Translations under genes and position numbers: made by a program | Shown: one piece after another, positions 4,612 through 52,336 of the stretch | Numbering within the stretch: position 1 is the stretch's first letter | How the letters are laid out: the number at the start of each line of letters is the position of its first letter | Notes under the pieces: generated by a model | Databases searched by the model: none | Seen by the model: the letters and a program-made list of their open reading frames with translations, nothing else | Told to the model about the DNA's origin: nothing | Assembly (NCBI RefSeq): GCF_024502345.1 | Contig: NZ_JALDNN010000001.1 | DNA from: Escherichia coli | GTDB lineage: Bacteria > Pseudomonadota > Gammaproteobacteria > Enterobacterales > Enterobacteriaceae | Length of the DNA: 64,000 nt | Strand: one strand, 5' to 3'

Positions 4612-5832
4612 TGTAGATTCAATTGGTCAACGCAACAGTTATGTGAAAACATGGGGTTGCGGAGGTTTTTTGAATGAGACGAACATTTACAGCAGAGGAA
4701 AAAGCCTCTGTTTTTGAACTATGGAAGAACGGAACAGGCTTCAGTGAAATAGCGAATATCCTGGGTTCAAAACCCGGAACGATCTTCACTATGTTAAGGG
4801 ATACTGGCGGCATAAAACCCCATGAGCGTAAGCGGGCTGTAGCTCACCTGACACTGTCTGAGCGCGAGGAGATACGAGCTGGTTTGTCAGCCAAAATGAG
4901 CATTCGTGCGATAGCTACTGCGCTGAATCGCAGTCCTTCGACGATCTCACGTGAAGTTCAGCGTAATCGGGGCAGACGCTATTACAAAGCTGTTGATGCT
5001 AATAACCGAGCCAACAGAATGGCGAAAAGGCCAAAACCGTGCTTACTGGATCAAAATTTACCATTGCGAAAGCTTGTTCTGGAAAAGCTGGAGATGAAAT
5101 GGTCTCCAGAGCAAATATCAGGATGGTTAAGGCGAACAAAACCACGTCAAAAAACGCTGCGAATATCACCTGAGACAATTTATAAAACGCTGTACTTTCG
5201 TAGCCGTGAAGCGCTACACCACCTGAATATACAGCATCTGCGACGGTCGCATAGCCTTCGCCATGGCAGGCGTCATACCCGCAAAGGCGAAAGAGGTACG
5301 ATTAACATAGTGAACGGAACACCAATTCACGAACGTTCCCGAAATATCGATAACAGACGCTCTCTGGGGCATTGGGAGGGCGATTTAGTCTCAGGTACAA
5401 AAAACTCTCATATAGCCACACTTGTAGACCGAAAATCACGTTATACGATCATCCTTAGACTCAGGGGCAAAGATTCTGTCTCAGTAAATCAGGCTCTTAC
5501 CGACAAATTCCTGAGTTTACCGTCAGAACTCAGAAAATCACTGACATGGGACAGAGGAATGGAACTGGCCAGACATCTAGAATTTACTGTCAGCACCGGC
5601 GTTAAAGTTTACTTCTGCGATCCTCAGAGTCCTTGGCAGCGGGGAACAAATGAGAACACAAATGGGCTAATTCGGCAGTACTTTCCTAAAAAGACATGTC
5701 TTGCCCAATATACTCAACATGAACTAGATCTGGTTGCTGCTCAGCTAAACAACAGACCGAGAAAGACACTGAAGTTCAAAACACCGAAAGAGATAATTGA
5801 AAGGGGTGTTGCATTGACAGATTGAATCTACA
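4612..5832 (+). mobile_element. IS30 (1221 bp) with a 2-bp GC target duplication
   Basis: Ends are TGTAGATTCAATTGGTCAACGCAAC... and ...GTTGCATTGACAGATTGAATCTACA, which are inverted repeats. 'gc' at 4610-4611 is repeated at 5833-5834. The length is exactly 1221 bp. Confidence 0.95.
4674..5825 (+). CDS. insI: IS30 transposase
   Basis: The 383-aa ORF MRRTFTAEEKASVFELWKNGTGFSEIANILG... matches my recollection of IS30 InsI along its length. Confidence 0.95.
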   Translation: MRRTFTAEEKASVFELWKNGTGFSEIANILGSKPGTIFTMLRDTGGIKPHERKRAVAHLTLSEREEIRAGLSAKMSIRAIATALNRSPSTISREVQRNRGRRYYKAVDANNRANRMAKRPKPCLLDQNLPLRKLVLEKLEMKWSPEQISGWLRRTKPRQKTLRISPETIYKTLYFRSREALHHLNIQHLRRSHSLRHGRRHTRKGERGTINIVNGTPIHERSRNIDNRRSLGHWEGDLVSGTKNSHIATLVDRKSRYTIILRLRGKDSVSVNQALTDKFLSLPSELRKSLTWDRGMELARHLEFTVSTGVKVYFCDPQSPWQRGTNENTNGLIRQYFPKKTCLAQYTQHELDLVAAQLNNRPRKTLKFKTPKEIIERGVALTD

Positions 5833-17940: not shown

Positions 17941-18174
17941 ATGCAAGTCACTGACGATACGTCGTTACCGCCAGGGCAATTCACCCGCCGACAGGCTGAA
18001 GCCGTGGTCACGCTTTACCACAACGTCACTATAGAAGATGACCAGGGTACGCACTTTCGGCTGGTTATTCGCGACAGCGAGGGGACGTTAATCTGGCGGG
18101 CCTGGAATTTTGAAGCCAGTGCCGGGGAATGGCTTAACCGCTATCTGCTCAGCCACGGGATCCCCAAACACTGA
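17941..18174 (+). CDS. DUF905/UPF0401 (YkfF-like) small protein
   Basis: Carries [44 protein letters not shown] and is paralogous to 44225-44458. Confidence 0.7.
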
Positions 18175-18212
18175 CACACCACAGCTTAACCCAATAGCGA
18201 CCACACAAAAAA

Positions 18213-18246
18213 GCCATGCTCCCACAGGAGCATGGCTGTTTTGTTT
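18213..18246 (+). terminator. Rho-independent terminator
   Basis: GCCATGCTCC-caca-GGAGCATGGC followed by TGTTTTGTTT. Confidence 0.7.
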
Positions 18247-18277
18247 ATGCCGTTAAATCAACAATAAGGAATTTACC

Positions 18278-18535
18278 ATGAGACTAGCCAGCCGCTTTGG
18301 ACGGACAAACCAGATCCGTCGCGATCGTCCGTTAACCCGCGAAGAACTGATGCAGGTCGTTCCCAGCGTATTCAGTGCAGATCGCCACGGTTCCAGGAGC
18401 GAAAAATACGCTTACATACCCACCATTACTCTGCTCGAAAATCTTCAACGCGAAGGCTTTGAACCCTTCTTCGCCTGCCAGTCACGCGTACGCGACCCTG
18501 ACCGCCGGGAGCACACCAAACATCTGCTGCGCCAT
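18278..18535 (+). pseudogene. DUF932 (YafZ/YfjQ-family) gene, N-terminal ~85 codons only; truncated at the cassette junction
   Basis: MRLASRFGRTNQIRRDRPLTREELMQVVPSVF...EGFEPFFACQSRVRDPDRREHTKHLLR parallels the intact paralog 44557-45375 up to about codon 85, then diverges. Confidence 0.8.
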
Positions 18536-21414: not shown

Positions 21415-21435
21415 TATAATTATCCTTATTAACCG

Positions 21436-23142
21436 TTAATCTTGCGCTGCATCGTCATCGGCAGACGCATCGTCAGTTAGGTTTGCCACGTTTAACGAAT
21501 AATCGTCCTGACCAAATTGGCACTTGTCTAAAATGGCTTTTGGCAGTTTTTTCAAGGTTAAATTGGTAAAACGACCTGGCTCGCAGCGAAATGCACCACA
21601 CATAACCAGTAAAGTTCGGTCACTGCCAACTTCTTCTGACAGCGCTTCTAATTTATCTACCGATAAGCTTTGTGTGGTGACATAAATATGATCCGTCTCG
21701 GTTGAATAACCGTGATCCCACCAATTCACTTCCGATGGCGCATAGGTAAAACCTTCCAGCTTACAAACGGCTTCGGCGAGCATTTCTGGGTTGTACTCTT
21801 TATTGATCACTTCCAAGCCAAACTTATCTTTCACAATTAAGGTCGGGGCAAGTTTGTAATAGCGGAAGCCACCGCCACCTTGCCAGTTTACAGACTTAGA
21901 AATACCACCTTGATCTTCGCCATCAATCACTTTTTGCAAGCGCGGGATAATATGGGTATGACAATGATCACCTAGCTCGACCGAGATCCAACGTCTTTTC
22001 ATCTTGTGAGCTACAGCAGCAGTAGTTCCCGAACCACCGAATGAATCAAAGACTAAATCGCCTTCTCGCGTACACATTTCGAAAATCCGCTTCAAAAGCG
22101 CTTCGGGTTTTTTTCCATTTTTGAAACTAACGCCGCCTTCATTTGCTATTCCATTCCAACTAATGTCAGTCCAAACATCAGTTATTAGTTCAGCAGGTTG
22201 CATCTCACCGTCAATTTCCAAAAGCCTATTGGAGTAAAAGACCATTTGCCTACCATTTGCGATATAAAAGCCTTCGACATCCTCATTTGGATGTACATAA
22301 ACCTTATCCCTATCTTTCTTTGACTTCTCGATAGTTTCTTTTCTCTTTATTTTAGCACCACCACCAATTGCAACGGATTGAAATACACGTTCTGCATTAT
22401 CAATTGCGAATTGTGCTAATTCATCATCAAATGTATCAGGCAGTTTTTTCTTGGCTTCTTTTGTATCTTTATAGCCATTGGCCTTTGCAAACGCATCGGC
22501 AATACCGCACCACGTCCAACTTTTATAATGGTCATCTGGGTTTAATAGATATTTGTTATATCCCGTATCATATCCTTTAGGTATATAGATTTTGTTAAGC
22601 GGTTTCTGGGTGCGATCTTTTGCGTATACAAGCAAAAAGTTTACTGTGGAGAAAACTGTGGCCCCTGTTGCCTTAAAGCCTGAAGGGTCATTTGTGGTCA
22701 TCGATATGGTATTTAACTGATTTGCACGACCAAAAATCTCGTCCATCAAAACTTTTAAATAAGCCATTTCGCAGTCATCTAAGTGAACGAATATTACTCC
22801 ATCATCACTTAGTAGATTACGAATTATTTCTAACCTATCCCTCATTAAGCCCAGCCAAATGGAATGCTCCAGACCATCATCATAGTGCTCAAAAGCACTT
22901 CCGGTATTGAATGGTGGGTCTATGTAAACACACTTCACTTTGCCTGCATATTCTTGCTCTAGCGCCTTCAATGCCAATAAGTTATCGCCAAAAATCAGTT
23001 TATTATCAAAAATATCGTTTTCGGTCACTTTTTGGCTGGCGTGATAAGACTTGCTCGGGTCTTCTAACAAAATGCGCGGCTCTAACTTTTTGCGCTCGTT
23101 TTTGCCTATCCAGGTCAGTTCTAATTTGGTTTTGCTCATCAT
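21436..23142 (-). CDS. mod: Type III R-M Mod subunit (beta-class N6-adenine/N4-cytosine DNA methyltransferase)
   Basis: 568 aa with VYIDPPFNTG (motif IV) preceding FDSFGGSGTTAAVA (motif I). The N-terminal LTWIGKNERKKLEPRILLED is typical of Type III Mod. Confidence 0.85.
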   Translation of the reverse strand: MMSKTKLELTWIGKNERKKLEPRILLEDPSKSYHASQKVTENDIFDNKLIFGDNLLALKALEQEYAGKVKCVYIDPPFNTGSAFEHYDDGLEHSIWLGLMRDRLEIIRNLLSDDGVIFVHLDDCEMAYLKVLMDEIFGRANQLNTISMTTNDPSGFKATGATVFSTVNFLLVYAKDRTQKPLNKIYIPKGYDTGYNKYLLNPDDHYKSWTWCGIADAFAKANGYKDTKEAKKKLPDTFDDELAQFAIDNAERVFQSVAIGGGAKIKRKETIEKSKKDRDKVYVHPNEDVEGFYIANGRQMVFYSNRLLEIDGEMQPAELITDVWTDISWNGIANEGGVSFKNGKKPEALLKRIFEMCTREGDLVFDSFGGSGTTAAVAHKMKRRWISVELGDHCHTHIIPRLQKVIDGEDQGGISKSVNWQGGGGFRYYKLAPTLIVKDKFGLEVINKEYNPEMLAEAVCKLEGFTYAPSEVNWWDHGYSTETDHIYVTTQSLSVDKLEALSEEVGSDRTLLVMCGAFRCEPGRFTNLTLKKLPKAILDKCQFGQDDYSLNVANLTDDASADDDAAQD

Positions 23143-23196
23143 TTCTGTGCTCTTATCTTGTGTTCGTTACTTAGCGTTATTATTCTACAGCAATCG

Positions 23197-25062
23197 CTAC
23201 GCAGGTTGTGCTTGGCGATTACTCGCTTGGGTGTTTTGCCCTTGTCGGCGTTGCGCTTGCTCGGCTAAGTAACTGAATAAATTCTGGTTGTGTGGGTCGT
23301 TCGCTTGAAGGCGTTCTTGTTTTGCTACAACTGCCGGGCTTTCTGCCAAGTTTAAATGGCTAATCCACACCGTTTGCATTAAACGTGCGGTATCGCCCAA
23401 GCGTTTGAAGTATGCGTGCGGCGCACTGCCTAATACTAATGCCGTAAAACTATCAAAAAATTGCTGACGAAGTTCATCAAAAGCGTGGCTGATTAATCTT
23501 TTAAATGCCGCTTGCTCGGTAATCTCAGGAGCCGTAATAGCGCCTTCAAACTGCGCCATTAATAGCGTGGTTATGCAGTAAGTAAAATGTCGATATACCA
23601 GTTTTTCTGGGCTTGGACTACTGCGCTCTGCGTTTGTACATAAGACTTGAATAGCCAGATAGCAGTTCACCGCGTTAATGGCGACGGCCCCCTGTAAATC
23701 TGTACTAAAAACGGCTTGGTACTCGGCACTTTCTTGGTTAGTGAATTTGCTTGGCTCTACTTTTAGCTGATAAGGCACGCGTACATCACCGTGCATACAG
23801 GCCAATGCTTTGGCCAAGGTGTCGATAGTAATGCTGCGAATACCCGCTGCTGCGCTTTGTTGTGGGCGGTAGAGATATTCAACACCAAACATTTTCATCT
23901 CTTGGCGCAAGCGTTCTTGGGTATCATCCAGCGCGGCAAAGTTGGCTAAATCGACCGGGTTTTGCAGGTTACGCGCTTTGGTTACTTGTTTGTGAAATGC
24001 ATCGTTACCCGTGTTGATAATGGTTACCATCACTTGAGCTTGGCTGATGTCTGCATTTGGGTTTTCACGCATAAACTGTGCAGCACTAGCAATGGTTTGT
24101 GCACCGTTAACGACGGACAGGCCATCGACTGCAACATGCTTGCTACCTGTGTGGCCTCTAATATTCCCTTTTGGTTTTACTGCATTGCCAACCAGAGTAA
24201 TGCCATTGTTAAGATAAATAAAATTTTCCGGCTCATGTAAAAGGGTGTCTTTAATCGCCCTATTTACCCCACGTCTGCCAGCACCAATAAAATAGCGAAT
24301 ATTTTTCTCGTAAAGTTTACGGTCATGAGTAGTGTGCAAGGCAATTAAATCGGTTAGCTTGGCGATACCAAATACGACTTTTCGTGGTTGTTCTTGCACT
24401 CGGAACTTATATACAGCGACACGCTCGTTTACCGTATCAACCGCATGTTCACTGCGAAGAGCCTGCTCAACATCGGTGGCGGTGTATTCTTGATATTCAG
24501 GTGCGATTTGCTCTTCACCTTCATCAATCAGCTCTTGGATCGCTGGTTGTAGGTAGTTTTGTGCTTGTATGGTAATGCCATTACCTGTGTATGCGACAAG
24601 CAGTTGAATTCTTTCGCACTCGTCTAATGCGGCTTCAATATTTGCTTGAAGGTTTTGAACATTTTGATTAAAGCGGTGAAATTGCTTGTTTAAAAGTAAC
24701 TTTACACCCTCAATAAAAGCCTGTGCTTCGCCCAATTGGAATTGCGCATCTTCCTTCATTTTTGACTGTACTAAGTACAGAGTCTGATCAGCTTCGTGAT
24801 AATAAATTGCATCAATACCATGGTCTTCATAGTCGTCCACCACAGCTTTTGCTGCGGTCACTACGTCTAAATCGAATTTTTGCTGTAGTACGAATGCGCT
24901 AAAAGCCCTGGAAATTTGCTTTTTAGGTTTATCTTCTCGCCCACCTTGCCCAAGCAATGGCGGTAAATGCGGCACAAAACGCTGCTGTAGCAGTTCTTTT
25001 AATAGGGTAAGAAATTGTGGTTGTAATGCTGCCAAGTGAGTTGTCCTTATTTTTATTGCCAA
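23197..25062 (-). CDS. AIPR-family (abortive infection phage resistance) protein
   Basis: 621 aa with [31 protein letters not shown]...[11 protein letters not shown], the AIPR signature as I recall it. The first codon is TTG (25062-25060), which overlaps the Abi_2 stop by 10 nt. Confidence 0.7.
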
Positions 25063-25982
25063 ATTGGCCGCGCTTGCCAGTCGGCTGGAAAGCCCATGCG
25101 GTCAATGTCTATTTGGTGATGATTTATCAATTGGATGAGTCGTTGCTTCCAGTGATGTTCACCACTGATCACATCCATGAGGTAGCCCAACATCACCAAG
25201 GTGTTATAAATTTTTCGTAAACGCCGGTCGCTATCGGGCAGGTTTTGCAAGCTTTGAATCAGTGCCGGTTCACCATGGCGTGGCAGTACCGTGGTTTTAA
25301 TAAAATCACGGTTCCATAGCCTAGAATGATGGGCACTTAAATTGCGCACTAGCGACAAATGCTCACAGAATGAGGTAAGAGTTTTTTCATCTAGGCCGTA
25401 GCTTTTGCTTATTACCTGGCGGTCGGCACGCAGCTTGATATTGCTGTACCAACAGGAAAGTTGCCCCATGGTTAACAGCTCAACACAGGCCCAAATAGGG
25501 GGTAGTGGCTCTTGATATTTTTGCGTAAGGTGCTTGATGAACTCTTCACGACTGCACTTTACCTCACCCGTGAGTTTGCCAAGGCTACTGGCGTATTCTA
25601 ATAAATCACCAAAGAGCTCTGGTTTTAAATGAGGGTGCGCGGTTTGGTATTTTTGGCTCAACTGATACGCAATTTGTGTGCGTAATGACACCTCAAAACG
25701 CTCGATGGCATCTAGCACTAACAAACGTAGTTCACGGTCGAAAACATATAGGCTTAGGACTTGGTCAAACTGAGTACCTGTGATAAACGTATGACTGGCA
25801 TGATCTTGCTCATAGGGCAAACAATAAGCCGCAAAACGATAGTAGTTCAGCTGTGCTAAGTAAAACTCAGCTTTCGGGACATCACTGATCACTAGGCCAC
25901 GTTGTTGCAACAAGCGTACTTGATCGCTAAAGCTTGTAGGGGGCTTGGTAAAAGCGACTTTAGGGACTGGTTTGCGGCTCAT
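25053..25982 (-). CDS. Abi_2-family (AbiD/AbiF-like) HEPN protein
   Basis: Carries [12 protein letters not shown]...YYRFAAY...VFDRELR...[16 protein letters not shown] (HEPN R-x4-H). The start is taken at MSRKP (25982); the longest ORF starts at 25994. Confidence 0.75.
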
Positions 25983-26139
25983 TTGACCTCCCATGCAACA
26001 GAAGATCGAATTTTGCGGGCCCCAGAAACGAGTAACCCCTCACAGGGCGCTGATCTGACGGGTAGCGGGAGGGGTGTTGTTGCAGTGATCATAGCCCCAA
26101 ACTGAAAAAAGTCAATGCTGGCGTTGAAATTGATTGTCA

Positions 26140-29034
26140 TCATTGAACCGTCCACCCAATGGTAAATAGGGTCTCTTGGCTGGTTTTTTTATTCAGTTTG
26201 CCTTCTAAGCTTTCAATCAGCTGTTCGCGCTTTTCGTCCACTTCATCTTGTTTATCAAACAGTTCACGGCGGCTTTTATTGCGCTGACTTTCTAACTGGC
26301 GCTGCTGTTTTTGCAGGGCAAGTTTCTCTTCCAGGGTTGGAGCTATTTTGGCTTCGCGGCGTACTTGCTTGATTTGCTTATCAAGCTCTTTTATAGATTG
26401 TTCAAGCCCTTCTTTTAAATCGTCTGCCCAAGAATCTAACTTGTTTACCTCTTGCTCGAAGAAGCTGAGATTACGATCGTTAACTTGCTTTTCGATGCCT
26501 AGTCTCGACTGCTGTAACGCATGCTGCAGCGCATATTGATAGCCAGGATATAAGGCGGCAAGTTCTTGCTCACTTACTTCACTTTGCACACAGGCACTAA
26601 GCTGCATCAGCTTTTGCACGACTTCACTTGGTAGCGGATGACCATGTTCATCTTGCGCGGCGAACAATAAATGGTCTTCGCTACGCTCCAATGATTCGAC
26701 ACTAAATTTTTGTAGGCTTAGTACACCTGACAAACCCACTAAGGGTTCTAGCATACTGATTTTTGTTTGGTGGTTGCTGTAATCAAAAATTACGCTGGCA
26801 ATGGGTAATTCACGTTGAAGCGCGTTGCTGATCACCCATTCACCCAGCGGGTGGGTGATACGATACACATGGGCATTGGCTAGTTTACCGGTTTCAATAC
26901 TGCCGCTTTGCTGTCCTCGGCGTACAAGTTGGTAGCTACCTGTAGGAGCCTGATTGATACTTTGATTAAGCGTAAAACTATGGTTGCTTGGGTCAATGTC
27001 TGCGATAGCTGCAAGTTCATGCGTACTGAGTTGCCAGAACCAACGGCCTACTTTATCGAGGCGTTGCTGCGCGGCATCTAGCTGAATTTTGAGTAAGTCG
27101 TGAATATCTTCATCGAAATTTTCCAGCAGCAGTTGCTGGGTCTCGCGCATTTTTTGGTTGATGTCGGCTTCTAGCTCTTTTTGCAATTGATCAAAAGCTG
27201 CTTCTATTTCCGCCGGTTGCCGACAAGTCTCGTATATATTTTGGATGCGTTTTTCAAAATCAATACCAGATTCAATGCTGCCTAGCACATCGTCCGATGC
27301 ACCAAACACGCCATCGAACAGATGGAATTTTTCAGTCAGTAACTCTAAAACACGCTGATCGGCTTTGTTGGCTTCGTTGAGGAAGTTGATCACCACAACA
27401 TCAAATTGCTGCCCATAGCGGTGACAACGGCCAATACGTTGCTCTACTCGTTGTGGGTTCCATGGTAAGTCATAGTTAATAAGTAACGAACAGAACTGTA
27501 AGTTAACCCCTTCTGCAGCCGCTTCGGTTGCGATCATAACTTCGGCATGATGGCGGAAGTAATCAATTAGGGCAGTACGGCGGTCAATTTGCGGTGAACC
27601 ACTCACCTTATCACTACCTTGGTTTTCAGCTAACCACTGCTGATAAACTTTGGTTGCTTCTGGATGGTTATTGCTGCCACTAAAGGTGACTAATTTATCA
27701 GCAAAGCCATTCGCCTCGAGGAAACGAGCTAGGTATTCTTGCGTGCGCTTCGATTCGGTAAAAATAATGACTTTACGTGGCGCCCCCATTTCCTCCATTT
27801 TGGCAAACCCTTGATTAAGCGCCGTTAGCAAGGCTTGGGTTTTACTGTCGGTGGTAATGGATTTAGCCTGCTCGATATAATGCTCAAGCTCGGCTATTTC
27901 AGCATTGAGTAACTCAAAGTCAATATCACTCTCAGGGGTATTGCTTTGTGTTTCTTCTACATACTCGCTGTACTCTTCTCCTAAATCATCACTCTCAACA
28001 AGCTCACTGATAATATCGAGGTCCGATTTAGCCTGTACTTTCAAGTCAACCAATCGGCGCTTTATAGTTTCGAGTGTGTTGAGCACTGCGTGCGAACTAG
28101 ATGCTAATAGCTTTCTCAGTATAAGGCCGGTTAAATGACGTTGGCTCTTGGGTAGTGCATAGCTCTCGTCCTTTTCCAATAAGGCACTAATACTTTCGTA
28201 AAGTGCCATCTCAGCATTAGAGGGTGTAAACGGTACGGTGAGTGTTTGACGTTGGGTATAGCGGACGTATTCGAGTACATCTTTGCGCAAGGTACGCTGA
28301 ATAAACCCGGTAAGTCGTTTCTTTAAATGCCCTAGCGCACTTTCGTTATTGACAAAGTGTTGTTTGAAGCTTCGCTCATCGCCGAAGATTTGATCGTCGA
28401 TAATGGTTGAAAGTCCATACAATTCCATGAGCGAGTTTTGTAAGGGTGTTGCAGTAAGTAATAGCTTTTTACTGCCATCTAATGCGCGGCGTAGCGTTTG
28501 ACCCATTTTATTGCTGCTACGATGTGCATTACGTAGCTTGTGCGCTTCGTCGATGACGACAATATCCCATGGCTCTAGCATTAGCTGCGTTTCCATTCTC
28601 GCAGCATAGTGATAGGACATAATAGAAACGCAGTGATTAGCTAGCGGGTTAGTTTGACCATTGTTAACACTAATGCGCCACGTTTTTGCATCAAGCACTT
28701 GCGTTGGTAAATTAAACTTATCGCCCAATTCCTGCGCCCACTGGCGTCGCAATGACGCCGGGCAGATGATCAATATGCGGCGTTTACGCTCTGCCCAATA
28801 CTGTGACAGTACTAAGCCTGCTTCAATAGTTTTCCCTAAGCCCACTTCATCAGCGAGTACAACACCTTTGCTTAACGGGTTGTTGAGCGCAAAAAGTGCC
28901 GCATGAATTTGGTGCGGATTGAGATCAACACTGGCATCAAAAAGAGATTGAGACAATTTATCAACGCCATTTTCAGCGTGGCGAATGGTTAATTCCTGCG
29001 CAAAGTATTTTGCTTGATAATCAGTTATTACCAT
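26140..29034 (-). CDS. SNF2-family helicase with a ~330-aa uncharacterised C-terminal region ending in a coiled coil
   Basis: Carries LADEVGLGKTIEAG, VVIDEAHKLRN, LLLTATPLQNS and INYDLPWNPQRVEQRIGRCHRYGQ. The preferred start MVITDYQAKYFAQELT at 29034 follows AAGGGG and overlaps the HTH gene's stop by 14 nt; the longest ORF starts at 29115. Confidence 0.8.
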   Translation of the reverse strand: MVITDYQAKYFAQELTIRHAENGVDKLSQSLFDASVDLNPHQIHAALFALNNPLSKGVVLADEVGLGKTIEAGLVLSQYWAERKRRILIICPASLRRQWAQELGDKFNLPTQVLDAKTWRISVNNGQTNPLANHCVSIMSYHYAARMETQLMLEPWDIVVIDEAHKLRNAHRSSNKMGQTLRRALDGSKKLLLTATPLQNSLMELYGLSTIIDDQIFGDERSFKQHFVNNESALGHLKKRLTGFIQRTLRKDVLEYVRYTQRQTLTVPFTPSNAEMALYESISALLEKDESYALPKSQRHLTGLILRKLLASSSHAVLNTLETIKRRLVDLKVQAKSDLDIISELVESDDLGEEYSEYVEETQSNTPESDIDFELLNAEIAELEHYIEQAKSITTDSKTQALLTALNQGFAKMEEMGAPRKVIIFTESKRTQEYLARFLEANGFADKLVTFSGSNNHPEATKVYQQWLAENQGSDKVSGSPQIDRRTALIDYFRHHAEVMIATEAAAEGVNLQFCSLLINYDLPWNPQRVEQRIGRCHRYGQQFDVVVINFLNEANKADQRVLELLTEKFHLFDGVFGASDDVLGSIESGIDFEKRIQNIYETCRQPAEIEAAFDQLQKELEADINQKMRETQQLLLENFDEDIHDLLKIQLDAAQQRLDKVGRWFWQLSTHELAAIADIDPSNHSFTLNQSINQAPTGSYQLVRRGQQSGSIETGKLANAHVYRITHPLGEWVISNALQRELPIASVIFDYSNHQTKISMLEPLVGLSGVLSLQKFSVESLERSEDHLLFAAQDEHGHPLPSEVVQKLMQLSACVQSEVSEQELAALYPGYQYALQHALQQSRLGIEKQVNDRNLSFFEQEVNKLDSWADDLKEGLEQSIKELDKQIKQVRREAKIAPTLEEKLALQKQQRQLESQRNKSRRELFDKQDEVDEKREQLIESLEGKLNKKTSQETLFTIGWTVQ

Positions 29035-29227
29035 CCAACACCCCTTTTCCTTGAGCTGCTTGCGTACTGATCCATTCTTCAAGATCGGATTGTTTAAAGC
29101 GCCAAGCATTGCCAACTTTAAAAGCAGGAATTTTATGTACCGCTGCTAGACGGTAAACAGTTCTCTCATTTACCTTCAAATACTCAGCTACTTCTTTAAT
29201 TGTCAGAACGGTATCAGTCATTTTCAC
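29021..29227 (-). CDS. Excisionase/MerR-type HTH DNA-binding protein (68 aa)
   Basis: LTIKEVAEYLKVNERTVYRLAAVHKIPAFKVGNAWRFKQSDLEEWI is an HTH_17/Xis-like pattern. It is the first gene of the minus-strand cassette. Confidence 0.75.
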   Translation of the reverse strand: MKMTDTVLTIKEVAEYLKVNERTVYRLAAVHKIPAFKVGNAWRFKQSDLEEWISTQAAQGKGVLDGNN

Positions 29228-42538: not shown

Positions 42539-43423
42539 ATGTCATTCAGCCATTCTTCCCTCTCCGCACAAGTGAAATCATATCTGACGTTTCTTCCTGA
42601 AGAAATTCGCCAGAAAATCCTTGAACATCTCCACGGTGTTATTCATTACGAGCCCGTAATTGGCATTATGGGTAAATCCGGCACCGGCAAAAGCAGTCTG
42701 TGTAATGCCATTTTTCAGTCCCGTATCTGCGCCACGCATCCCCTGAACGGCTGCACCCGCCAGGCTCATCGTCTTACCCTGCAGCTCGGTGAACGCAGAA
42801 TGACGCTGGTCGATATGCCCGGCATTGGTGAGACACCGCAGCATGATCAGGAATACCGGGAGCTTTACCGTCAGTTACTGCCGGAACTGGATCTGATTAT
42901 CTGGATCCTGCGGGCTGATGAACGTGCGTATGCTGCTGATATTGCCATGCATCAGTTTTTACTGAATGAAGGTGCAGATCCCTCGCGTTTTCTGTTTGTT
43001 CTCAGCCATGCCGATCGCGTGTTTCCTGCTGAAGAATGGAACGACACAGAAAAATGCCCGTCCCGTCAGCAGGCGCTCTCACTGGCGACGGTGACAGCCC
43101 GGGTGGCAACCCTGTTCCCTTCATCATTTCCGGTACTCTCCGTTGCCGCACCTGTCGGCTGGAACCTTCCGGCGTTTGTGTCGCTGATGATCCACGCACT
43201 GCCACCACAGGCAACCAGTGCGGTTTATTCACATATCCGGGGGGAAAACCGCTCTGAACAGGCCCGGAAACACGCACAACAGACTTTTGGTGAAACCATC
43301 GGGAAAAGTTTTGACGACGCCGTTGCCCGTTTCAGTTTTCCGGCCTGGATGTTACAGCTTCTGCGCAAAACCCGGGACCGCATTATCCACCTGCTGGTCA
43401 CGCTGTGGGATCACCTGTTCTGA
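42539..43423 (+). CDS. YeeP/YfjP/YkfA-family GTPase
   Basis: Carries P-loop IGIMGKSGTGKSSLCNAIF, DMPGIGE and LSHAD motifs. Confidence 0.85.
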   Translation: MSFSHSSLSAQVKSYLTFLPEEIRQKILEHLHGVIHYEPVIGIMGKSGTGKSSLCNAIFQSRICATHPLNGCTRQAHRLTLQLGERRMTLVDMPGIGETPQHDQEYRELYRQLLPELDLIIWILRADERAYAADIAMHQFLLNEGADPSRFLFVLSHADRVFPAEEWNDTEKCPSRQQALSLATVTARVATLFPSSFPVLSVAAPVGWNLPAFVSLMIHALPPQATSAVYSHIRGENRSEQARKHAQQTFGETIGKSFDDAVARFSFPAWMLQLLRKTRDRIIHLLVTLWDHLF

Positions 43424-44224: not shown

Positions 44225-44458
44225 ATGTCGGACTGCCACCCTGTTTTATTGCCCGAAGGCCCTTTCTCACGCGAACAGGCGATGGCTGTCACAACAGCTT
44301 ACCACAATGTGCTTATTGAAGATGATCAGGGAACGCATTTCCGGCTGGTTATCCGCAATGCTGAAGGGCAGCTACGCTGGCGGTGCTGGAATTTTGAACC
44401 TGATGCCGGAAAACAGCTAAATCCGTATCTCGCCAGTGAGGGAATTCTCAGGCAATAA
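44225..44458 (+). CDS. DUF905/UPF0401 (YkfF-like) small protein
   Basis: Carries [44 protein letters not shown]. Confidence 0.7.
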
Positions 44459-44480
44459 ACGTCTTCATTTCATCCATCAG

Positions 44481-44511
44481 GCCACGTCTTCTCCGGGAGA
44501 CGTGGCTTTTT
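44481..44511 (+). terminator. Rho-independent terminator
   Basis: GCCACGTCT-tctccggg-AGACGTGGC followed by TTTTT. Confidence 0.7.
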
Positions 44512-44556
44512 CATTTATTACACCAGTAAATCTTAATCACCAATAAGGAGCAAATC

Positions 44557-45375
44557 ATGCGATTAGCAAGTCGTTTTGGTTATGCGAACCAGATACGCCG
44601 TGACCGCCCCTTAACTCGCGAAGAACTGATGCAGGTCGTCCCCAGCGTATTCGGGGAAAATAAGCACACATCCAGAAGCGAGAACTATACCTGGATCCCC
44701 ACCATCACCGTGCTGGAAAGCCTGCAGCGGGAAGGCTTTCAGCCCTTCTTTGCCTGCCAGACCCGCGTACGTGACCCGGGCCGCCGGGGGTATACCAAAC
44801 ACATGCTGCGTCTGCGCCATGACGGGGAGATAAACGGACAACATGTCCCTGAAATCATCCTACTGAACTCCCATGACGGTACCTCCAGCTACCAGATGCT
44901 GCCGGGTTACTTCAGGTTCGTCTGCCAGAACGGCTGCGTCTGTGGTCAGTCTCTGGGGGAAGTGCGTGTTCCACACCGGGGAAATGTGGTGGACAGAGTC
45001 ATTGAAGGGGCTTACGAGGTGGTGGGCGTGTTTGACCGGATTGAGGAAAAGCGTGATGCCATGCAGTCGCTGGTCCTGCCGCCACCGGCACGCCAGGCGC
45101 TGGCACAGGCGGCGCTGACTTACCGTTATGGTGACGAACATCAGCCCGTCACCACCGCTGACATTCTGACACCACGACGCAGGGAGGATTACGGTAAGGA
45201 CCTGTGGAGTGCTTATCAGACCATCCAGGAGAATATGCTGAAAGGCGGGATTTCCGGGCGCAGCGCAAAAGGAAAACGTATCCATACCCGGGCCATTCAC
45301 AGCATCGGTACCGACATTAAGCTCAATCGCGCATTGTGGGTGATGGCAGAAACGCTGCTGGAGAGCATGCGCTGA
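44557..45375 (+). CDS. DUF932 (YafZ/YfjQ-family) protein, intact
   Basis: 272 aa, from MRLASRFGYANQIRRDRPLTREELMQVVPSVF... to LNSHDGTSSYQMLPGYFRFVCQNG. Confidence 0.8.
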   Translation: MRLASRFGYANQIRRDRPLTREELMQVVPSVFGENKHTSRSENYTWIPTITVLESLQREGFQPFFACQTRVRDPGRRGYTKHMLRLRHDGEINGQHVPEIILLNSHDGTSSYQMLPGYFRFVCQNGCVCGQSLGEVRVPHRGNVVDRVIEGAYEVVGVFDRIEEKRDAMQSLVLPPPARQALAQAALTYRYGDEHQPVTTADILTPRRREDYGKDLWSAYQTIQENMLKGGISGRSAKGKRIHTRAIHSIGTDIKLNRALWVMAETLLESMR

Positions 45376-45466: not shown

Positions 45467-45952
45467 ATGACAACCGTTTCGCATAATTCCACCACACCTT
45501 CTGTTTCCGTAACCGCTGCATCAGGGAATAACCCACCTCAGCTGGTTGCCACTCCCGTCCCTGATGAACAGTGCATCAGCTTCTGGCCGCAGCACTTTGG
45601 CCTCATTCCACAGTGGGTGACCCTGGAGCCCCGTATCTTCGGCTGGATGGACCGTCTGTGTGAAGACTACTGCGGTGGTATCTGGAATCTGTACACCCTG
45701 AACAACGGTGGGGCATTTATGGCACCCGAACCGGATGACGATGATGACGAAACATGGGTACTGTTCAATGCCATGAACGGTAACCGCGCTGAAATGAGTC
45801 CGGAAGCCGCCGGCATTGCTGCCTGTCTGATGACGTACAGTCATCATGCCTGTCGAACGGAGTGTTATGCCATGACGGTCCACTATTACCGGCTGCGGGA
45901 TTACGCCCTACAGCATCCGGAATGCAGCGCCATTATGCGCATCATCGACTGA
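45467..45952 (+). CDS. Antirestriction protein (KlcA/ArdB-like; YfjX/YafX family)
   Basis: Carries FWPQHFGLIPQWVTLEPRIFGWMDRLCEDYCGGIWNLYTLNNGGAFMAPE... Confidence 0.8.
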   Translation: MTTVSHNSTTPSVSVTAASGNNPPQLVATPVPDEQCISFWPQHFGLIPQWVTLEPRIFGWMDRLCEDYCGGIWNLYTLNNGGAFMAPEPDDDDDETWVLFNAMNGNRAEMSPEAAGIAACLMTYSHHACRTECYAMTVHYYRLRDYALQHPECSAIMRIID

Positions 45953-45967
45953 ATGGAGACAGGGACA

Positions 45968-46444
45968 ATGCAGCAGCTTTCCTTTCTGCCCGGAGAGATG
46001 ACGCCCGGCGAGCGCAGTCTCATTCTGCGGGCCCTGAAAACCCTGGACCGCCATCTTCATGAACCCGGCGTGGCCTTCACCTCCACCCGTGCGGCACGGG
46101 AATGGCTGATTCTGAACATGGCGGGACTGGAGCGTGAAGAATTCCGGGTGCTGTATCTGAATAACCAGAATCAGCTGATTGCCGGTGAGACCCTCTTCAC
46201 AGGCACCATCAACCGCACGGAAGTCCATCCCCGGGAAGTGATTAAACGCGCCCTGTATCACAATGCCGCAGCCGTGGTGCTGGCACACAATCACCCGTCA
46301 GGTGAAGTCACACCCAGTAAGGCTGACCGCCTTATTACGGAACGTCTGGTACAGGCACTGGCCCTGGTGGATATCCGGGTGCCGGACCATCTGATAATCG
46401 GTGGCAGCCAGGTTTTCTCCTTTGCTGAACACGGTCTGCTTTAA
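45968..46444 (+). CDS. RadC-like JAB-domain protein (YeeS/YfjY/YkfG family)
   Basis: Reads MQQLSFLPGEMTPGERSLI...VLAHNHPSGEVTPSKAD (JAMM motif). Confidence 0.85.
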   Translation: MQQLSFLPGEMTPGERSLILRALKTLDRHLHEPGVAFTSTRAAREWLILNMAGLEREEFRVLYLNNQNQLIAGETLFTGTINRTEVHPREVIKRALYHNAAAVVLAHNHPSGEVTPSKADRLITERLVQALALVDIRVPDHLIIGGSQVFSFAEHGLL

Positions 46445-46512
46445 CCCGTCACCATCACAACCACATCACACTTGTTTTCACTTTTATCTTCTGTCTTCAG
46501 AGGTATCCCATC

Positions 46513-46734
46513 ATGAAAATTATCACCCGTGGTGAAGCCATGCGTATTCACCAACAGAATCCTGCATCCCGTCTTTTTCCGTTCTGTACCGGTAAGTACC
46601 GCTGGCACGGCAGTGCTGAAACGTATACCGGTCGTGAAGTGCAGGATATTCCCGGTGTGCTGGCCGTGTTTGCTGAACGCCGTAAGGACAGTTTTGGCCC
46701 GTATGTCCGGTTGATGAGCGTCACTCTGAACTGA
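46513..46734 (+). CDS. DUF987 (YeeT/YpjJ/YkfH-family) protein
   Basis: Reads MKIITRGEAMRIHQQNPASRLFPFCTGKYRWHGSAETYTGREVQDIPGVLAVFAERRKD.. Confidence 0.8.
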   Translation: MKIITRGEAMRIHQQNPASRLFPFCTGKYRWHGSAETYTGREVQDIPGVLAVFAERRKDSFGPYVRLMSVTLN

Positions 46735-46752
46735 GTCAGAAAGGGGATTCTG

Positions 46753-47784
46753 ATGAGCAGCATTATCACCACCACAGTGTATACGCTGGATGAACTTTCC
46801 TGCCCTTCTGCACGGGAAAAAGCCCGCGACTGGTACCGTGTGCACCATTCTGACAGCAACTGGTATGAAAACGTGTACGAGGACTTCAGGGCGGTCTGTG
46901 GCATTTTCGGAATTGACCTCCGCCAGCGCGTTTTCCGGCTCAGCAACGGCAGGTTTATGGAAGAGCCGTGCATCTGGTTCAGCGGATTCTGCAGCCAGGG
47001 GGACGGAGCCTGTTTTGAAGGACGCTGGCACTGGCAGTCAGCAACAGCCAGGAGGCTCCGGGAGTATGCCACACAGGACCATGAACTCCATCGTATCGCG
47101 GATGCCCTGCAGGCGGTGCAGAAACGTAACTTCTGGCAACTGCAGGCTGAAATCCACCACCGGGGACGTTACTGCCATCCGTACAGCATGGATATCACTG
47201 TTACCCGGAACAGTCCGACTGGTCAGGCTATGACAGCCGATGCGGAAGCCGCTGTCAGCGAAGCCCTGCGCGACCTGGCCTTCTGGTTGTACCGTCAGCT
47301 GGAAAACGAGTACGACAGGCTGACCTCTGATGCCGCTGTTGATGAGGCCCTTCTCATCAACGAATACACCTTCACCGAAGCCGGTCTGCGCGCCGGCTTA
47401 CCTGAGGACTTTATCGTGTCAGACAAACTCCATGAGACAAATTATCCCGACGACCATAACGACCGCCTCTGGTGGGGACTGCTCTGCACCGTGACGCCCT
47501 GTTTCGGGGCACGTCTGGTGCAGGAGGGTAACCGGTTGCATTACCTTGTCGACCGCGCCGGCATCAGAGGCCTGTTCAGCGATGCAGATGCGTACCACCT
47601 GGACCAGGCCTTTCCGCTGCTGATGAAACAACTGGAGCTCATGCTCACCAGCGGTGAACTGAATCCCCGCCATCAGCATACCGTGACACTGTATGCGAAG
47701 GGGCTGACCTGTGAAGCCGACACCCTCGGCTCCTGTGGTTACGTTTATCTGGCTGTTTATCCGACGCCCGAAACGAAAAAGTAA
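46753..47784 (+). CDS. Extended CbeA/YeeU/YfjZ-family type IV antitoxin: ~221-aa N-terminal domain fused in frame to the antitoxin domain
   Basis: The C-terminal ~122 aa (VSDKLHETNYPDDHNDRLWWGLLCTVTPCFGARLVQEGNRLHYL...LYAKGLTCEADTLGSCGYVYLAVYPTPETKK) parallel YeeU. An internal GTG at 47416 is preceded by GAGGA (47404-47408). Confidence 0.75.
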   Translation: MSSIITTTVYTLDELSCPSAREKARDWYRVHHSDSNWYENVYEDFRAVCGIFGIDLRQRVFRLSNGRFMEEPCIWFSGFCSQGDGACFEGRWHWQSATARRLREYATQDHELHRIADALQAVQKRNFWQLQAEIHHRGRYCHPYSMDITVTRNSPTGQAMTADAEAAVSEALRDLAFWLYRQLENEYDRLTSDAAVDEALLINEYTFTEAGLRAGLPEDFIVSDKLHETNYPDDHNDRLWWGLLCTVTPCFGARLVQEGNRLHYLVDRAGIRGLFSDADAYHLDQAFPLLMKQLELMLTSGELNPRHQHTVTLYAKGLTCEADTLGSCGYVYLAVYPTPETKK

Positions 47785-47873
47785 CTCTCCAGAATAACCT
47801 TCTACTCCGGCCTGGTGCTTTCACCACGCCACTTTTCCATTTTTCATCTCTGCATATCAGGAAAATCTTCAGT

Positions 47874-48251
47874 ATGAAAACATTACCTGTATTACCCGGG
47901 CAGGCGGCCAGTTCACGCCCGTCTCCGGTTGAAATCTGGCAGACACTGCTCACCCGACTGCTGGATCAGCACTACGGCCTTACGCTGAATGACACACCGT
48001 TCGCTGATGAACGTGTGATTGAGCAGCATATTGAGGCAGGCATTTCACTGTGCGATGCGGTGAACTTTCTCGTTGAAAAATACGCACTGGTACGTACCGA
48101 CCAGCCGGGATTCAGCGCCTGTACCCGTTCTCAGTTAATAAACAGTATTGATATCCTCCGGGCACGCCGGGCAACCGGCCTGATGACACGCGACAACTAC
48201 AGAACGGTAAATAACATTACCCTGGGTAAACATCCGGGGGCGAAACAATGA
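47874..48251 (+). CDS. CbtA/YeeV/YpjF-family type IV toxin
   Basis: Reads MKTLPVLPGQAASSRPSPVEIWQTLLTRLLDQHYGLTLNDTPFADERVIEQHIEAGISLCDAVNFLVEKYALVR.. Confidence 0.85.
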   Translation: MKTLPVLPGQAASSRPSPVEIWQTLLTRLLDQHYGLTLNDTPFADERVIEQHIEAGISLCDAVNFLVEKYALVRTDQPGFSACTRSQLINSIDILRARRATGLMTRDNYRTVNNITLGKHPGAKQ

Positions 48252-48670
48252 AACTGGCCCTGACGCTGGAAGCCGACAGCATTAATGCGCAGGCGCTGAA
48301 CATGGGGCGCATTGTCGTTGACGTCGATGGTATTGAGCTCGCTGAACTGATTAACAAAGTCGCTGAAAACGGTTATTCACTCCGCGTGGTGGATGAACGT
48401 GACGCTACCGAAACACCGGCGACTTCTGCCAGCCCTCATCAGTTGCCGGAAGACAATACAGTGATACAGAGCGTGATGCCATTAACCACTGAAACAGCGC
48501 TGGATATCCTCATTGCGTGGCTGCAGGACAATATTGACTGCGAATCGGAAATTATCTTTGACAACAATGAGGACAAAACGGATTCGGCAGCACTGTTGCC
48601 CTGTATTGAACAGGCCAGGGAGGATATCCGTACCCTGCGCCAACTGCAGCTTCTGTACCAGAACCAGTGA
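48248..48670 (+). CDS. YeeW/DUF5983-like protein
   Basis: 140 aa. Its start overlaps the toxin's stop (ATGA), the usual position after cbtA. Confidence 0.6.
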   Translation: MKLALTLEADSINAQALNMGRIVVDVDGIELAELINKVAENGYSLRVVDERDATETPATSASPHQLPEDNTVIQSVMPLTTETALDILIAWLQDNIDCESEIIFDNNEDKTDSAALLPCIEQAREDIRTLRQLQLLYQNQ

Positions 48671-49876: not shown

Positions 49877-50380
49877 TTATTGATAGTGTTTTATGTTCAG
49901 ATAATGCCCGATGACTTTGTCATGCAGCTCCACCGATTTTGAGAACGACAGCGACTTCCGTCCCAGCCGTGCCAGGTGCTGCCTCAGATTCAGGTTATGC
50001 CGCTCAATTCGCTGCGTATATCGCTTGCTGATTACGTGCAGCTTTCCCTTCAGGCGGGATTCATACAGCGGCCAGCCATCCGTCATCCATATCACCACGT
50101 CAAAGGGTGACAGCAGGCTCATAAGACGCCCCAGCGTCGCCATAGTGCGTTCACCGAATACGTGCGCAACAACCGTCTTCCGGAGCCTGTCATACGCGTA
50201 AAACAGCCAGCGCTGGCGCGATTTAGCCCCGACGTATCCCCACTGTTCGTCCATTTCCGCGCAGACGATGACGTCACTGCCCGGCTGTATGCGCGAGGTT
50301 ACCGACTGCGGCCTGAGTTTTTTAAATGGCGGAAAATCGTGTTGAGGCCAACGCCCATAATGCGGGCGGTTGCCCGGCAT
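49877..50380 (-). CDS. insB: IS1 InsB
   Basis: 167 aa, reading [50 protein letters not shown].. Confidence 0.95.
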
Positions 50381-50574
50381 CCAACGCCATTCATGGCCAT
50401 ATCAATGATTTTCTGGTGCGTACCGGGTTGAGAAGCGGTGTAAGTGAACTGCAGTTGCCATGTTTTACGGCAGTGAGAGCAGAGATAGCGCTGATGTCCG
50501 GCGGTGCTTTTGCCGTTACGCACCACCCCGTCAGTAGCTGAACAGGAGGGACAGCTGATAGAAACAGAAGCCAC
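50299..50574 (-). CDS. insA: IS1 InsA
   Basis: 91 aa, reading [45 protein letters not shown].. Confidence 0.95.
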
Positions 50575-50704: not shown

Positions 50705-52336
50705 ATGAGACATTCATTGCCCTACCGCATGTTACGCAAACGTCCGATGAAATTGAGTACCACTGTGATCTTAATGGTCAGCGCGGTACTGTTCTCGGTG
50801 CTATTGGTGGTGCATCTGATTTACTTCTCGCAAATCAGTGATATGACGCGAGACGGGCTAGCCAACAAGGCACTGGCAGTGGCGCGTACTCTCGCCGACT
50901 CGCCGGAAATCCGTCAGGGCTTGCAGAAAAAACCGCAGGAGAGTGGCATCCAGGCCATCGCGGAAGCCGTGCGCAAACGCAACGATCTGCTGTTTATTGT
51001 CGTTACCGATATGCAAAGTCTTCGCTACTCGCATCCTGAAGCCCAGCGTATTGGTCAGCCATTTAAAGGTGATGACATCCTTAAAGCGCTGAATGGCGAA
51101 GAAAATGTCGCTATCAATCGCGGTTTTCTGGCGCAAGCTTTACGCGTATTTACTCCCATCTACGATGAAAATCATAAACAAATTGGCGTGGTGGCGATCG
51201 GCCTTGAGTTAAGCCGCGTGACCCAACAGATCAATGACAGTCGCTGGAGCATTATCTGGTCAGTATTATTTGGCATGCTGGTCGGACTGATTGGCACCTG
51301 CATTCTGGTTAAAGTACTGAAAAAAATCCTTTTCGGCCTGGAACCCTACGAAATCTCCACGCTGTTTGAGCAACGCCAGGCCATGTTGCAGTCTATCAAA
51401 GAAGGCGTCGTTGCCGTGGACGATCGCGGCGAGGTCACGCTGATCAACGATGCCGCACAAGAATTGCTGAATTACCGTAAGTCGCAGGACGATGAGAAAC
51501 TGTCGACGCTCAGCCACTCATGGTCACAGGTGGTAGATGTCTCGGAAGTGTTACGCGACGGTACGCCGCGCCGCGACGAAGAGATTACGATTAAAGACCG
51601 GCTATTACTGATCAACACCGTTCCGGTGCGCAGTAATGGCGTTATCATCGGTGCCATTTCAACCTTCAGGGACAAAACTGAAGTTCGTAAACTGATGCAG
51701 CGACTCGACGGTCTGGTCAACTATGCTGATGCACTTCGTGAACGATCCCACGAATTTATGAATAAATTGCATGTGATTCTCGGATTATTGCATCTGAAGA
51801 GTTATAAGCAGTTGGAAGATTACATTCTCAAAACAGCCAATAACTATCAGGAAGAGATTGGCTCTATGCTGGGTAAGATCAAATCTCCGGTTATCGCTGG
51901 TTTTTTAATCAGCAAGATTAACCGCGCGACCGATTTAGGCCATACGCTGATTTTAAACAGTGAAAGCCAGCTGCCAGACAGCGGCAGTGAGGACCAGGTC
52001 GCGACGCTGATTACCACATTGGGAAATCTGATAGAAAACGCGCTGGAAGCATTAGGGCCGGAACCCGGTGGCGAAATTAGCGTAACATTGCACTACCGTC
52101 ACGGCTGGCTGCACTGCGAAGTTAACGATGATGGACCGGGGATCGCACCCGACAAAATCGATCACATTTTTGACAAAGGTGTCTCGACAAAAGGAAGCGA
52201 GCGAGGCGTCGGTTTAGCACTTGTCAAACAACAGGTAGAAAATCTCGGCGGCAGCATCGCCGTGGAATCGGAACCCGGGATTTTCACACAATTTTTTGTC
52301 CAGATACCCTGGGACGGGGAGAGGTCGAACAGATGA
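50705..52336 (+). CDS. dcuS: C4-dicarboxylate sensor histidine kinase DcuS
   Basis: The 543-aa ORF MRHSLPYRMLRKRPMKLSTTVILMVSAVLF... matches recalled K-12 DcuS almost residue for residue. Confidence 0.95.
   Translation: MRHSLPYRMLRKRPMKLSTTVILMVSAVLFSVLLVVHLIYFSQISDMTRDGLANKALAVARTLADSPEIRQGLQKKPQESGIQAIAEAVRKRNDLLFIVVTDMQSLRYSHPEAQRIGQPFKGDDILKALNGEENVAINRGFLAQALRVFTPIYDENHKQIGVVAIGLELSRVTQQINDSRWSIIWSVLFGMLVGLIGTCILVKVLKKILFGLEPYEISTLFEQRQAMLQSIKEGVVAVDDRGEVTLINDAAQELLNYRKSQDDEKLSTLSHSWSQVVDVSEVLRDGTPRRDEEITIKDRLLLINTVPVRSNGVIIGAISTFRDKTEVRKLMQRLDGLVNYADALRERSHEFMNKLHVILGLLHLKSYKQLEDYILKTANNYQEEIGSMLGKIKSPVIAGFLISKINRATDLGHTLILNSESQLPDSGSEDQVATLITTLGNLIENALEALGPEPGGEISVTLHYRHGWLHCEVNDDGPGIAPDKIDHIFDKGVSTKGSERGVGLALVKQQVENLGGSIAVESEPGIFTQFFVQIPWDGERSNR

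Follow-up and report, generated by a model that had tools for sequence, protein, structure and literature searches.

A rare in-frame fusion of a DUF8835-family gene to a CbeA-type antitoxin gene in Escherichia coli, probably a recent stop-loss allele

Introduction

The CbeA antitoxin of Escherichia coli K-12 and its paralogues neutralise the toxin CbtA without binding it, by bundling FtsZ and MreB, which is a type IV mode of action (PMC5371832). The paralogous antitoxins are also able to cross-neutralise (PMC5371832). Fusion of CbeA-family proteins to Cre does not prevent their recognition by the F transfer system (PMC11288057), which shows that they tolerate a fusion partner with respect to this one property alone.

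Here we consider an E. coli locus where the coding sequence for a CbeA-type antitoxin forms the 3′ end of a much longer reading frame. The locus resides in a 64,000 nt stretch of DNA, termed the window. Literature searches on the fusion, on DUF8835 and on the gene set of the island found no description of this fused architecture. From sequence comparisons we assign a probability of about 80% to the reading that the fusion is a rare and recent E. coli stop-loss allele, and not a designed long form or a new kind of antitoxin.

Results

One reading frame covers an upstream gene and a CbeA-type antitoxin

The locus is part of a CP4-like island operon. The 5′ part of the operon carries genes for a GTPase (42539-43423), a hypothetical protein, DUF905 and DUF932 (44557-45375). 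These are followed by an antirestriction protein (45467-45952), RadC (45953-46444), a DUF987/YeeT-like protein (46513-46734) and a 343 aa open reading frame (ORF), and the 3′ part consists of a CbtA toxin gene (47874-48251), a DUF5983-like ORF and DUF4942. The features that matter here are as follows, each with its basis in brackets.

46513..46734, + strand: DUF987 (YeeT-like) gene, operon neighbour 5′ of the fused ORF (PF06174, E = 2.3e-39)
46753..47784, + strand: fused 343 aa reading frame (ORF list and sequence)
46753..47397, + strand: DUF8835/phrog_5162-family part, 215 codons (a separate 214/215 aa CDS in relatives)
47398..47400, + strand: TTA, Leu216, in place of the former stop codon (aligned DNA, compared base by base)
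47401..47415, + strand: former intergenic spacer of 15 nt, in frame and free of stops (Pro-Glu-Asp-Phe-Ile), which holds GAGGA (sequence)
47416..47784, + strand: YeeU/CbeA-family type IV antitoxin CDS, GTG start, 122 aa plus stop (PF06154 and RefSeq start)
47874..48251, + strand: cognate CbtA-family toxin gene, 125 aa, intact (Pfam CbtA_toxin)

The initial annotation described a single ORF that covers an upstream domain and the antitoxin, and that keeps the Shine-Dalgarno sequence and GTG start of the latter. Both parts of this description are borne out. The ORF list and the sequence agree on one ATG-initiated frame of 343 codons that runs on the + strand from the ATG at 46753 to a TAA at 47782-47784. 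The ATG is preceded by AGGGGA, and the stop codon of the DUF987 gene lies 18 nt 5′ of it. Nested in the same frame is the antitoxin CDS, whose Shine-Dalgarno sequence (GAGGA, 47404-47408) is separated by 7 nt (47409-47415) from the GTG at 47416-47418. The upstream domain had been put at about 221 aa, which is correct as a length, but this segment is made up of 215 native residues followed by Leu-Pro-Glu-Asp-Phe-Ile and is not one domain. The only Pfam domain detected in the 343 aa ORF is CbeA_antitoxin (aa 240-338, E = 1.5e-52). The upstream part had been left without a family, and its 215 aa likewise gave no match in the Pfam copy used, in NCBIfam or in PADLOC.

The antitoxin itself is conventional. 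Its domain places it in the YeeU/CbeA family (profile positions 2-100 of 101 of PF06154), and the last 122 aa of the ORF align over residues 1-121 with K-12 YeeU (PDB 2H28, E = 9e-72), with further matches to PDB 2INW, 2EA9 and 2JN7. When read from the GTG, the CDS encodes 122 aa as in K-12, where cbeA starts at the homologous GTG, while the longest ORF encodes 343 aa; all 120 CbeA homologues listed have 108-140 aa. The antitoxin is located directly upstream of a CbtA-family toxin gene, which begins 89 nt past the antitoxin stop. This gene is annotated as cbtA (WP_000854821.1), and its product covers positions 1-112 of 112 of CbtA_toxin (PF06755, E = 4.2e-59).

A single base change accounts for the fusion

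Alignment with other cbeA loci, which had been proposed with the initial annotation, reveals that the upstream ORF in related loci normally closes with a TGA located 15 nt before the GTG, and the fusion is therefore a one-base stop-loss allele. Specifically, base 47399 is a T in the window and a G in relatives, which converts TGA to TTA (Leu). In strains F2_407_2_2 and UMNF18, a separate CDS of 214/215 aa ends in TGA and is followed by the 15 nt spacer and by a GTG-initiated YeeU-family antitoxin of 122 aa. The junction reads GGC TGA CCT GAG GAC TTT ATC GTG in these two strains and GGC TTA CCT GAG GAC TTT ATC GTG in the window; the 15 nt spacer has the same sequence in the stop-bearing loci. 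F2_407_2_2 matches the window at all bases from 46400 to 47398, with its first mismatch (G versus T) at 47399, and residues 1-215 of the window protein are 100% identical to WP_032216527.1 of that strain. Because the former TGA codon and the spacer together form 18 nt without an in-frame stop, the two cistrons have merged.

An independent stop loss, TGA to TGC, gives an equal fusion in one metagenome contig (P0017), which is what one would expect if the two genes become fused whenever the stop ahead of this spacer is lost. Three fusions of 342 aa (P0015, P0022 and P0025) share the Leu codon and have more diverged N-terminal parts; these may be recombinants.

The arrangement that permits such a fusion is not general. 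In the common L012-type allele (P0021, 501 members), the upstream gene has extra codons, and its stop overlaps the Shine-Dalgarno sequence and is out of frame with the GTG. The K-12 stop is likewise out of frame with the GTG. We also considered a conserved, programmed read-through and rejected it because the in-frame spacer is confined to one allele, as the L012-type and K-12 sequences demonstrate.

In E. coli, few contexts terminate translation as weakly as a UGA codon followed by C. The parental stop (L002, 2499-2501; about 430 E. coli records with the equivalent position) is a UGA followed by C and is in frame with the antitoxin. To judge from this context, it is conceivable that low-level natural read-through of the parental allele leads to the same fusion, and some fusion protein might already be made from the roughly 430 records with an in-frame TGA.

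The fused allele is genuine, rare and young

A single-base difference from the closest stop-bearing allele is also what would be seen if an error of sequencing or assembly had deleted the stop. However, the same T recurs in 24 complete-genome records that span different laboratories, hosts and countries, and the exact 343 aa protein is encoded by 99 contigs across NCBI, ENA and Logan. Given this recurrence in 24 independent complete records and 99 contigs, the read-through is not an artefact, and we consider an error to be extremely improbable.

The initial annotation also allowed for the fusion being widespread, and it is in fact infrequent: the exact 61 nt fused junction occurs in 24 of 20,395 complete E. 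coli records. The in-frame type of junction was found in 454 records, the T allele being carried by 24 of these, whereas the upstream gene (at least 80% coverage) is present as a separate gene in 1942 of 5426 complete E. coli genomes, or about 36%. Identity over window positions 46400-48300 is at least 99.6% in 23 of the 24 fusion records. The window, NMBU_W05E18 and SC516 share an identical fused ORF, from which that of 730V1 departs at a single residue (I5T). This near-identity among the genomes read indicates, at the sequence level, that the allele is young. It occupies two chromosomal sites, one beside cadC and one beside yghD/gsp, which means that it has moved or recombined, and there is no obvious selection against it. 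Overall, the fusion allele has the appearance of a near-neutral variant that is tolerated, and not of an evolved bifunctional antitoxin.

Public annotation treats the locus in two ways. RefSeq/PGAP, in the annotations read for three fusion genomes, marks 46753-47397 as a pseudogene ('incomplete; missing C-terminus'). The RefSeq antitoxin WP_032216526.1 starts at GTG 47416 in genomes that are 99.6-100% identical over 46400-48300. In GenBank, the 343 aa protein is named either 'antitoxin of the YeeV-YeeU toxin-antitoxin system' (BBP40105.1) or 'hypothetical protein'.

The upstream protein is a member of a protein family of mobile elements

The protein encoded by 46753-47397 is a full-length member of the family that PGAP labels DUF8835, with a match to phrog_5162 (E = 4.6e-35 over aa 3-211), whose annotation is 'unknown function'. 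The family name is misleading: most members have no neighbouring toxin-antitoxin genes, and elsewhere the label is applied to RelB. The only proteomics mention of the product name found in our literature searches concerns RelB and not this family. The family is large, with 3580 homologous clusters at 90% identity and 3207 clusters at 50% identity (E ≤ 1e-3), and nearly all members in the list of the best 150 have about 200-225 aa.

Similarity places the upstream protein in DUF8835 by the signature SGFxSQGDGAxFEG and the C-terminal motif YTFxxxGxR. Members are stand-alone genes of about 200-225 codons with their own stop; here that stop, a TGA, is replaced by TTA at 47398-47400. Alignments of the family reveal as conserved features the signature, H142, W178/Y180 and a C-terminal N..YTF...G. 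The last 20 or so residues are strongly conserved (D197, Y205-T206-F207, G211 and R213), the C-terminus reading ...YTFTEAG-R-G. Pfam applied to ten distant members returned only noise, and sequence and profile searches of the PDB with the upstream protein found no solved structural relative. An AlphaFold2 model of the protein has a pLDDT of 89.8.

The genomic contexts of the family were read in the 80 best species-representative loci. No CbeA or CbtA is encoded within 5 kb in 79 of the 80, and nearly all of these 79 are from Alphaproteobacteria or unclassified Proteobacteria metagenome-assembled genomes. The conserved block in these loci consists of a ParB_N protein (about 700 aa), small ORFs, the family gene, a Sno-like helicase (AAA_34/Helicase_C_4) and DUF7146/Toprim. 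In the loci read, the small ORF immediately upstream overlaps the start of the family gene. A relaxase and a coupling protein are encoded close by in L004, the one locus examined for this. The family is also represented on 112 plasmids, 41 of which are predicted to be conjugative, and in 49 phage genomes. Several homologues (H135-H147) are located in or near the terminal repeats of the Caulobacter jumbo phages CcrColossus, CcrPW, CcrSC and CcrBL9.

Because these contexts are mostly integrative and conjugative elements, plasmids and phages that lack CbeA/CbtA, the DUF8835 family is not specific to toxin-antitoxin modules. The position in phage terminal repeats and the conserved conjugative-element block hint at an early role: the upstream protein may be an entry or establishment type of mobile-element protein.

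The K-12 layout is derived, and adjacency is a weak guide to partnership

In the initial annotation, the K-12 layout served as the reference state. This is misleading, as a deletion has left K-12 with no more than a remnant of the upstream gene. The spacer between yeeT and cbeA in K-12 holds ATGAGCAGAATTATCGCCACTACC...GCCGATTTTCTGTAA, which encodes MSRIIATTGPFLADFL*, a mini-ORF of 16 codons (L094, E. coli K-12 NC_000913.3, 2553-2603). The mini-ORF consists of the first 25 nt or so and the last 18 nt or so of the L012-type upstream gene, and it is followed by the same GGATTTTATC GTG antitoxin start. As both ends of the upstream gene remain in the spacer, the K-12 layout is a derivative, by a deletion of about 640 bp, of the arrangement with the upstream gene.

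In Enterobacteriaceae, the DUF8835 gene is consistently located inside a CbeA/CbtA module, in variable order. In E. coli and Citrobacter (L098, 3501-4985) the order is DUF987-[214 aa]-CbeA-CbtA; in Klebsiella michiganensis (L008-L010, 5610-6996) it is CbeA-[214 aa]-CbtA; and in Salmonella diarizonae (L097, 2793-4584) it is CbeA-CbeA-[215 aa]-CbtA, with a 4 nt overlap with the second CbeA. From this embedding, a functional link between the DUF8835 protein and CbeA/CbtA is possible.

The strongest form of such a link would be a Rosetta-stone relationship, in which the DUF8835 protein is a third partner of the enterobacterial CbtA/CbeA pair and the fusion is a functional, perhaps even advantageous, tethered form that leaves the locus with two antitoxin isoforms. 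Its constant place within the module in Enterobacteriaceae, in differing gene orders, is in keeping with this proposal, as is the persistence of the fusion allele at two chromosomal sites with an intact toxin. The weak parental UGA-C stop could moreover mean that traces of the fusion protein already form. Against this, 79 of the 80 species-representative loci have no CbeA/CbtA within 5 kb, and the family extends to plasmids and lytic phages. The fusions are rare, near-identical and young, and the in-frame spacer is not conserved, being out of frame in the L012-type allele and in K-12. In addition, K-12 has lost the gene, and its CbtA/CbeA pair works nonetheless (PMC5371832). As synteny extends over the entire island backbone, adjacency alone is weak evidence. 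We therefore judge partnership with a functional fusion to be unlikely. We give slightly less credence still to the complete proposal that DUF8835 is a true third partner and that the TTA allele is a Rosetta-stone fusion which yields both a tethered DUF8835-CbeA protein and free antitoxin. The initial annotation also suggested that CbtA neutralisation could be coupled to a further activity at this locus. This found no direct support, and the family occurs largely apart from CbeA and CbtA.

Predicted products of the fused locus

According to the stop-loss reading, a G to T change at 47399 would have joined two adjacent cistrons of the CP4-like island operon. Ribosomes that initiate at ATG 46753 would then run on to the antitoxin stop and produce a two-domain protein of 343 aa. 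In this protein, a DUF8835 fold (to G215) and a CbeA fold (from about W240) would be joined by some 24 hydrophilic residues, namely the six read-through residues LPEDFI and VSDKLHETNYPDDHNDRL, the variable 18-residue N-terminal tail of the antitoxin. Because this tail is not part of the Pfam domain and YfjZ lacks it, the two domains likely fold independently. An AlphaFold2 model of the whole fusion is of low confidence (pLDDT 58, pTM 0.49) and is for that reason uninformative on domain packing or interference.

Internal initiation at GTG 47416 would probably still give the antitoxin of 122 aa, since its Shine-Dalgarno sequence GAGGA and its GTG are unchanged, and this short form would probably still neutralise CbtA. 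Production of both the long and the short protein is thus plausible on sequence grounds. Ribosomes that elongate through the Shine-Dalgarno sequence and the GTG could lower internal initiation. RNA folding of the junction predicts a hairpin that partly pairs the Shine-Dalgarno sequence, but for either allele its z score, about -1.6, falls short of significance. Among the 23 fusion genomes listed, 4 gave no second near-identical DNA locus in the search; taken with the intact toxin, this suggests an antitoxin that still functions in the fusion allele.

The fate of the N-terminal domain is the point at which another explanation enters. The C-terminal extension might destroy the function of the DUF8835 domain and leave the long protein unstable or inert, so that only the short antitoxin matters. 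The PGAP label 'incomplete; missing C-terminus', given in all three fusion-genome annotations that were read, fits this explanation, the strong conservation of the last 20 or so residues of the family indicates that an extension at the C-terminus could matter, and K-12 demonstrates that the upstream gene is dispensable. Yet all 215 native residues are encoded, and what follows them starts as a hydrophilic linker (about 24 residues), so that folding and activity of the domain are quite conceivable; no fusion allele seen has secondary frameshifts or stops. Every fusion allele examined has kept an intact upstream gene, an observation to which the youth of the allele lends little weight. Inactivation differs from the stop-loss explanation solely in the fate of the N-terminal domain. 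We regard it as rather doubtful, though less so than partnership.

The explanation that we favour, with good confidence from the sequence, is a recent join by stop loss that constitutes a near-neutral variant from which the short antitoxin is probably still made. A selective benefit of the fusion allele is conceivable.

Surroundings of the island operon

The same operon contains a second in-frame fused ORF, which encodes 140 aa (48248-48670, + strand). It combines the N-terminal 50-75 aa or so of a DUF5983/YeeW-like protein with a complete DUF957-like protein of 65 aa. The L012-type allele has a separate gene for each (162 and 65 aa, respectively), and PGAP splits the 140 aa ORF into a truncated pseudogene and a DUF957 CDS.

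Directly after the island, the window carries an IS1 copy (InsA/InsB ORFs; 49877-50574, - strand), and the next gene encodes a DcuS-type sensor kinase (50705-52336, + strand). In the closest E. coli genomes, the island instead adjoins an integrase remnant and cadC. The junction between island and IS1 as found in the window is absent from the complete E. coli genomes in the collection. This sequence arrangement suggests an IS1-associated deletion of the cadC side, and such deletions are known in Shigella and enteroinvasive lineages.

Further upstream, positions 18676-29115 (- strand) carry a defence-type cluster that encodes a ResIII helicase/restriction subunit (912 aa), an N6_N4 DNA methylase (568 aa), AIPR (621 aa), Abi_2 (313 aa) and an SNF2-family helicase (991 aa). 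The window also contains an ORF for a group II intron reverse transcriptase/maturase (2000-3523, - strand), a transposase ORF with HTH_38 and rve integrase-core domains (4674-5825, + strand), and a second, partial DUF905-DUF932 pair (17965-18532, + strand) with 70-79% aa identity to the copies at 44225-45375. Taken together, the intron reverse transcriptase, the transposase and the second partial pair point to a mosaic of two CP4-like island remnants.

Discussion

The fused allele is of limited importance in itself, as it is a rare point-mutation variant and the type IV toxin-antitoxin locus concerned is well known. Public annotation already accommodates it, in some entries by calling a pseudogene followed by a normal antitoxin and in others by calling one long 'YeeU antitoxin'. 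Of wider relevance is that about one-third of E. coli genomes have an uncharacterised gene between yeeT and the antitoxin, and that the K-12 layout derives from this arrangement by deletion. The fused allele also provides a natural construct for testing whether CbeA tolerates a large N-terminal fusion, and could be used to probe the relation of the DUF8835 protein to CbtA/CbeA.

Two in-frame products that arise through internal initiation are made from E. coli infB (IF2-alpha/beta), clpB and cheA. The fused locus resembles these genes in having an upstream start and an internal start with its own Shine-Dalgarno sequence, such that the long and short forms would share their C-terminus. In contrast to those cases, which are conserved and demonstrated, the allele in the window is accidental and rare, and is known from its sequence prerequisites.

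Three-gene toxin-antitoxin modules also exist, such as the toxin-antitoxin-chaperone (TAC) systems. The enterobacterial loci are like TAC, by analogy only, in that a third gene is located within the toxin-antitoxin operon in Enterobacteriaceae, in variable order.

When compared with the DUF8835 family, residues 1-215 of the window protein are a full-length member with the signature, H142 and the C-terminal YTF..G. Members normally stop at about 215 aa, whereas the stop has been lost in the window.

The closest described system is the CbtA/CbeA (YeeV/YeeU) pair of the K-12 cryptic prophage CP4-44, with its paralogues YkfI/YafW and YpjF/YfjZ. The antitoxin is of the same family, with a homologous GTG start, and the window and CP4-44 have in common a backbone of antirestriction protein, RadC, DUF987, antitoxin, toxin and YeeW-like genes. 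The two differ in what precedes the antitoxin: K-12 has no gene there but a 16-codon remnant, while in the window the antitoxin CDS doubles as the 3′ end of a 343 aa ORF.
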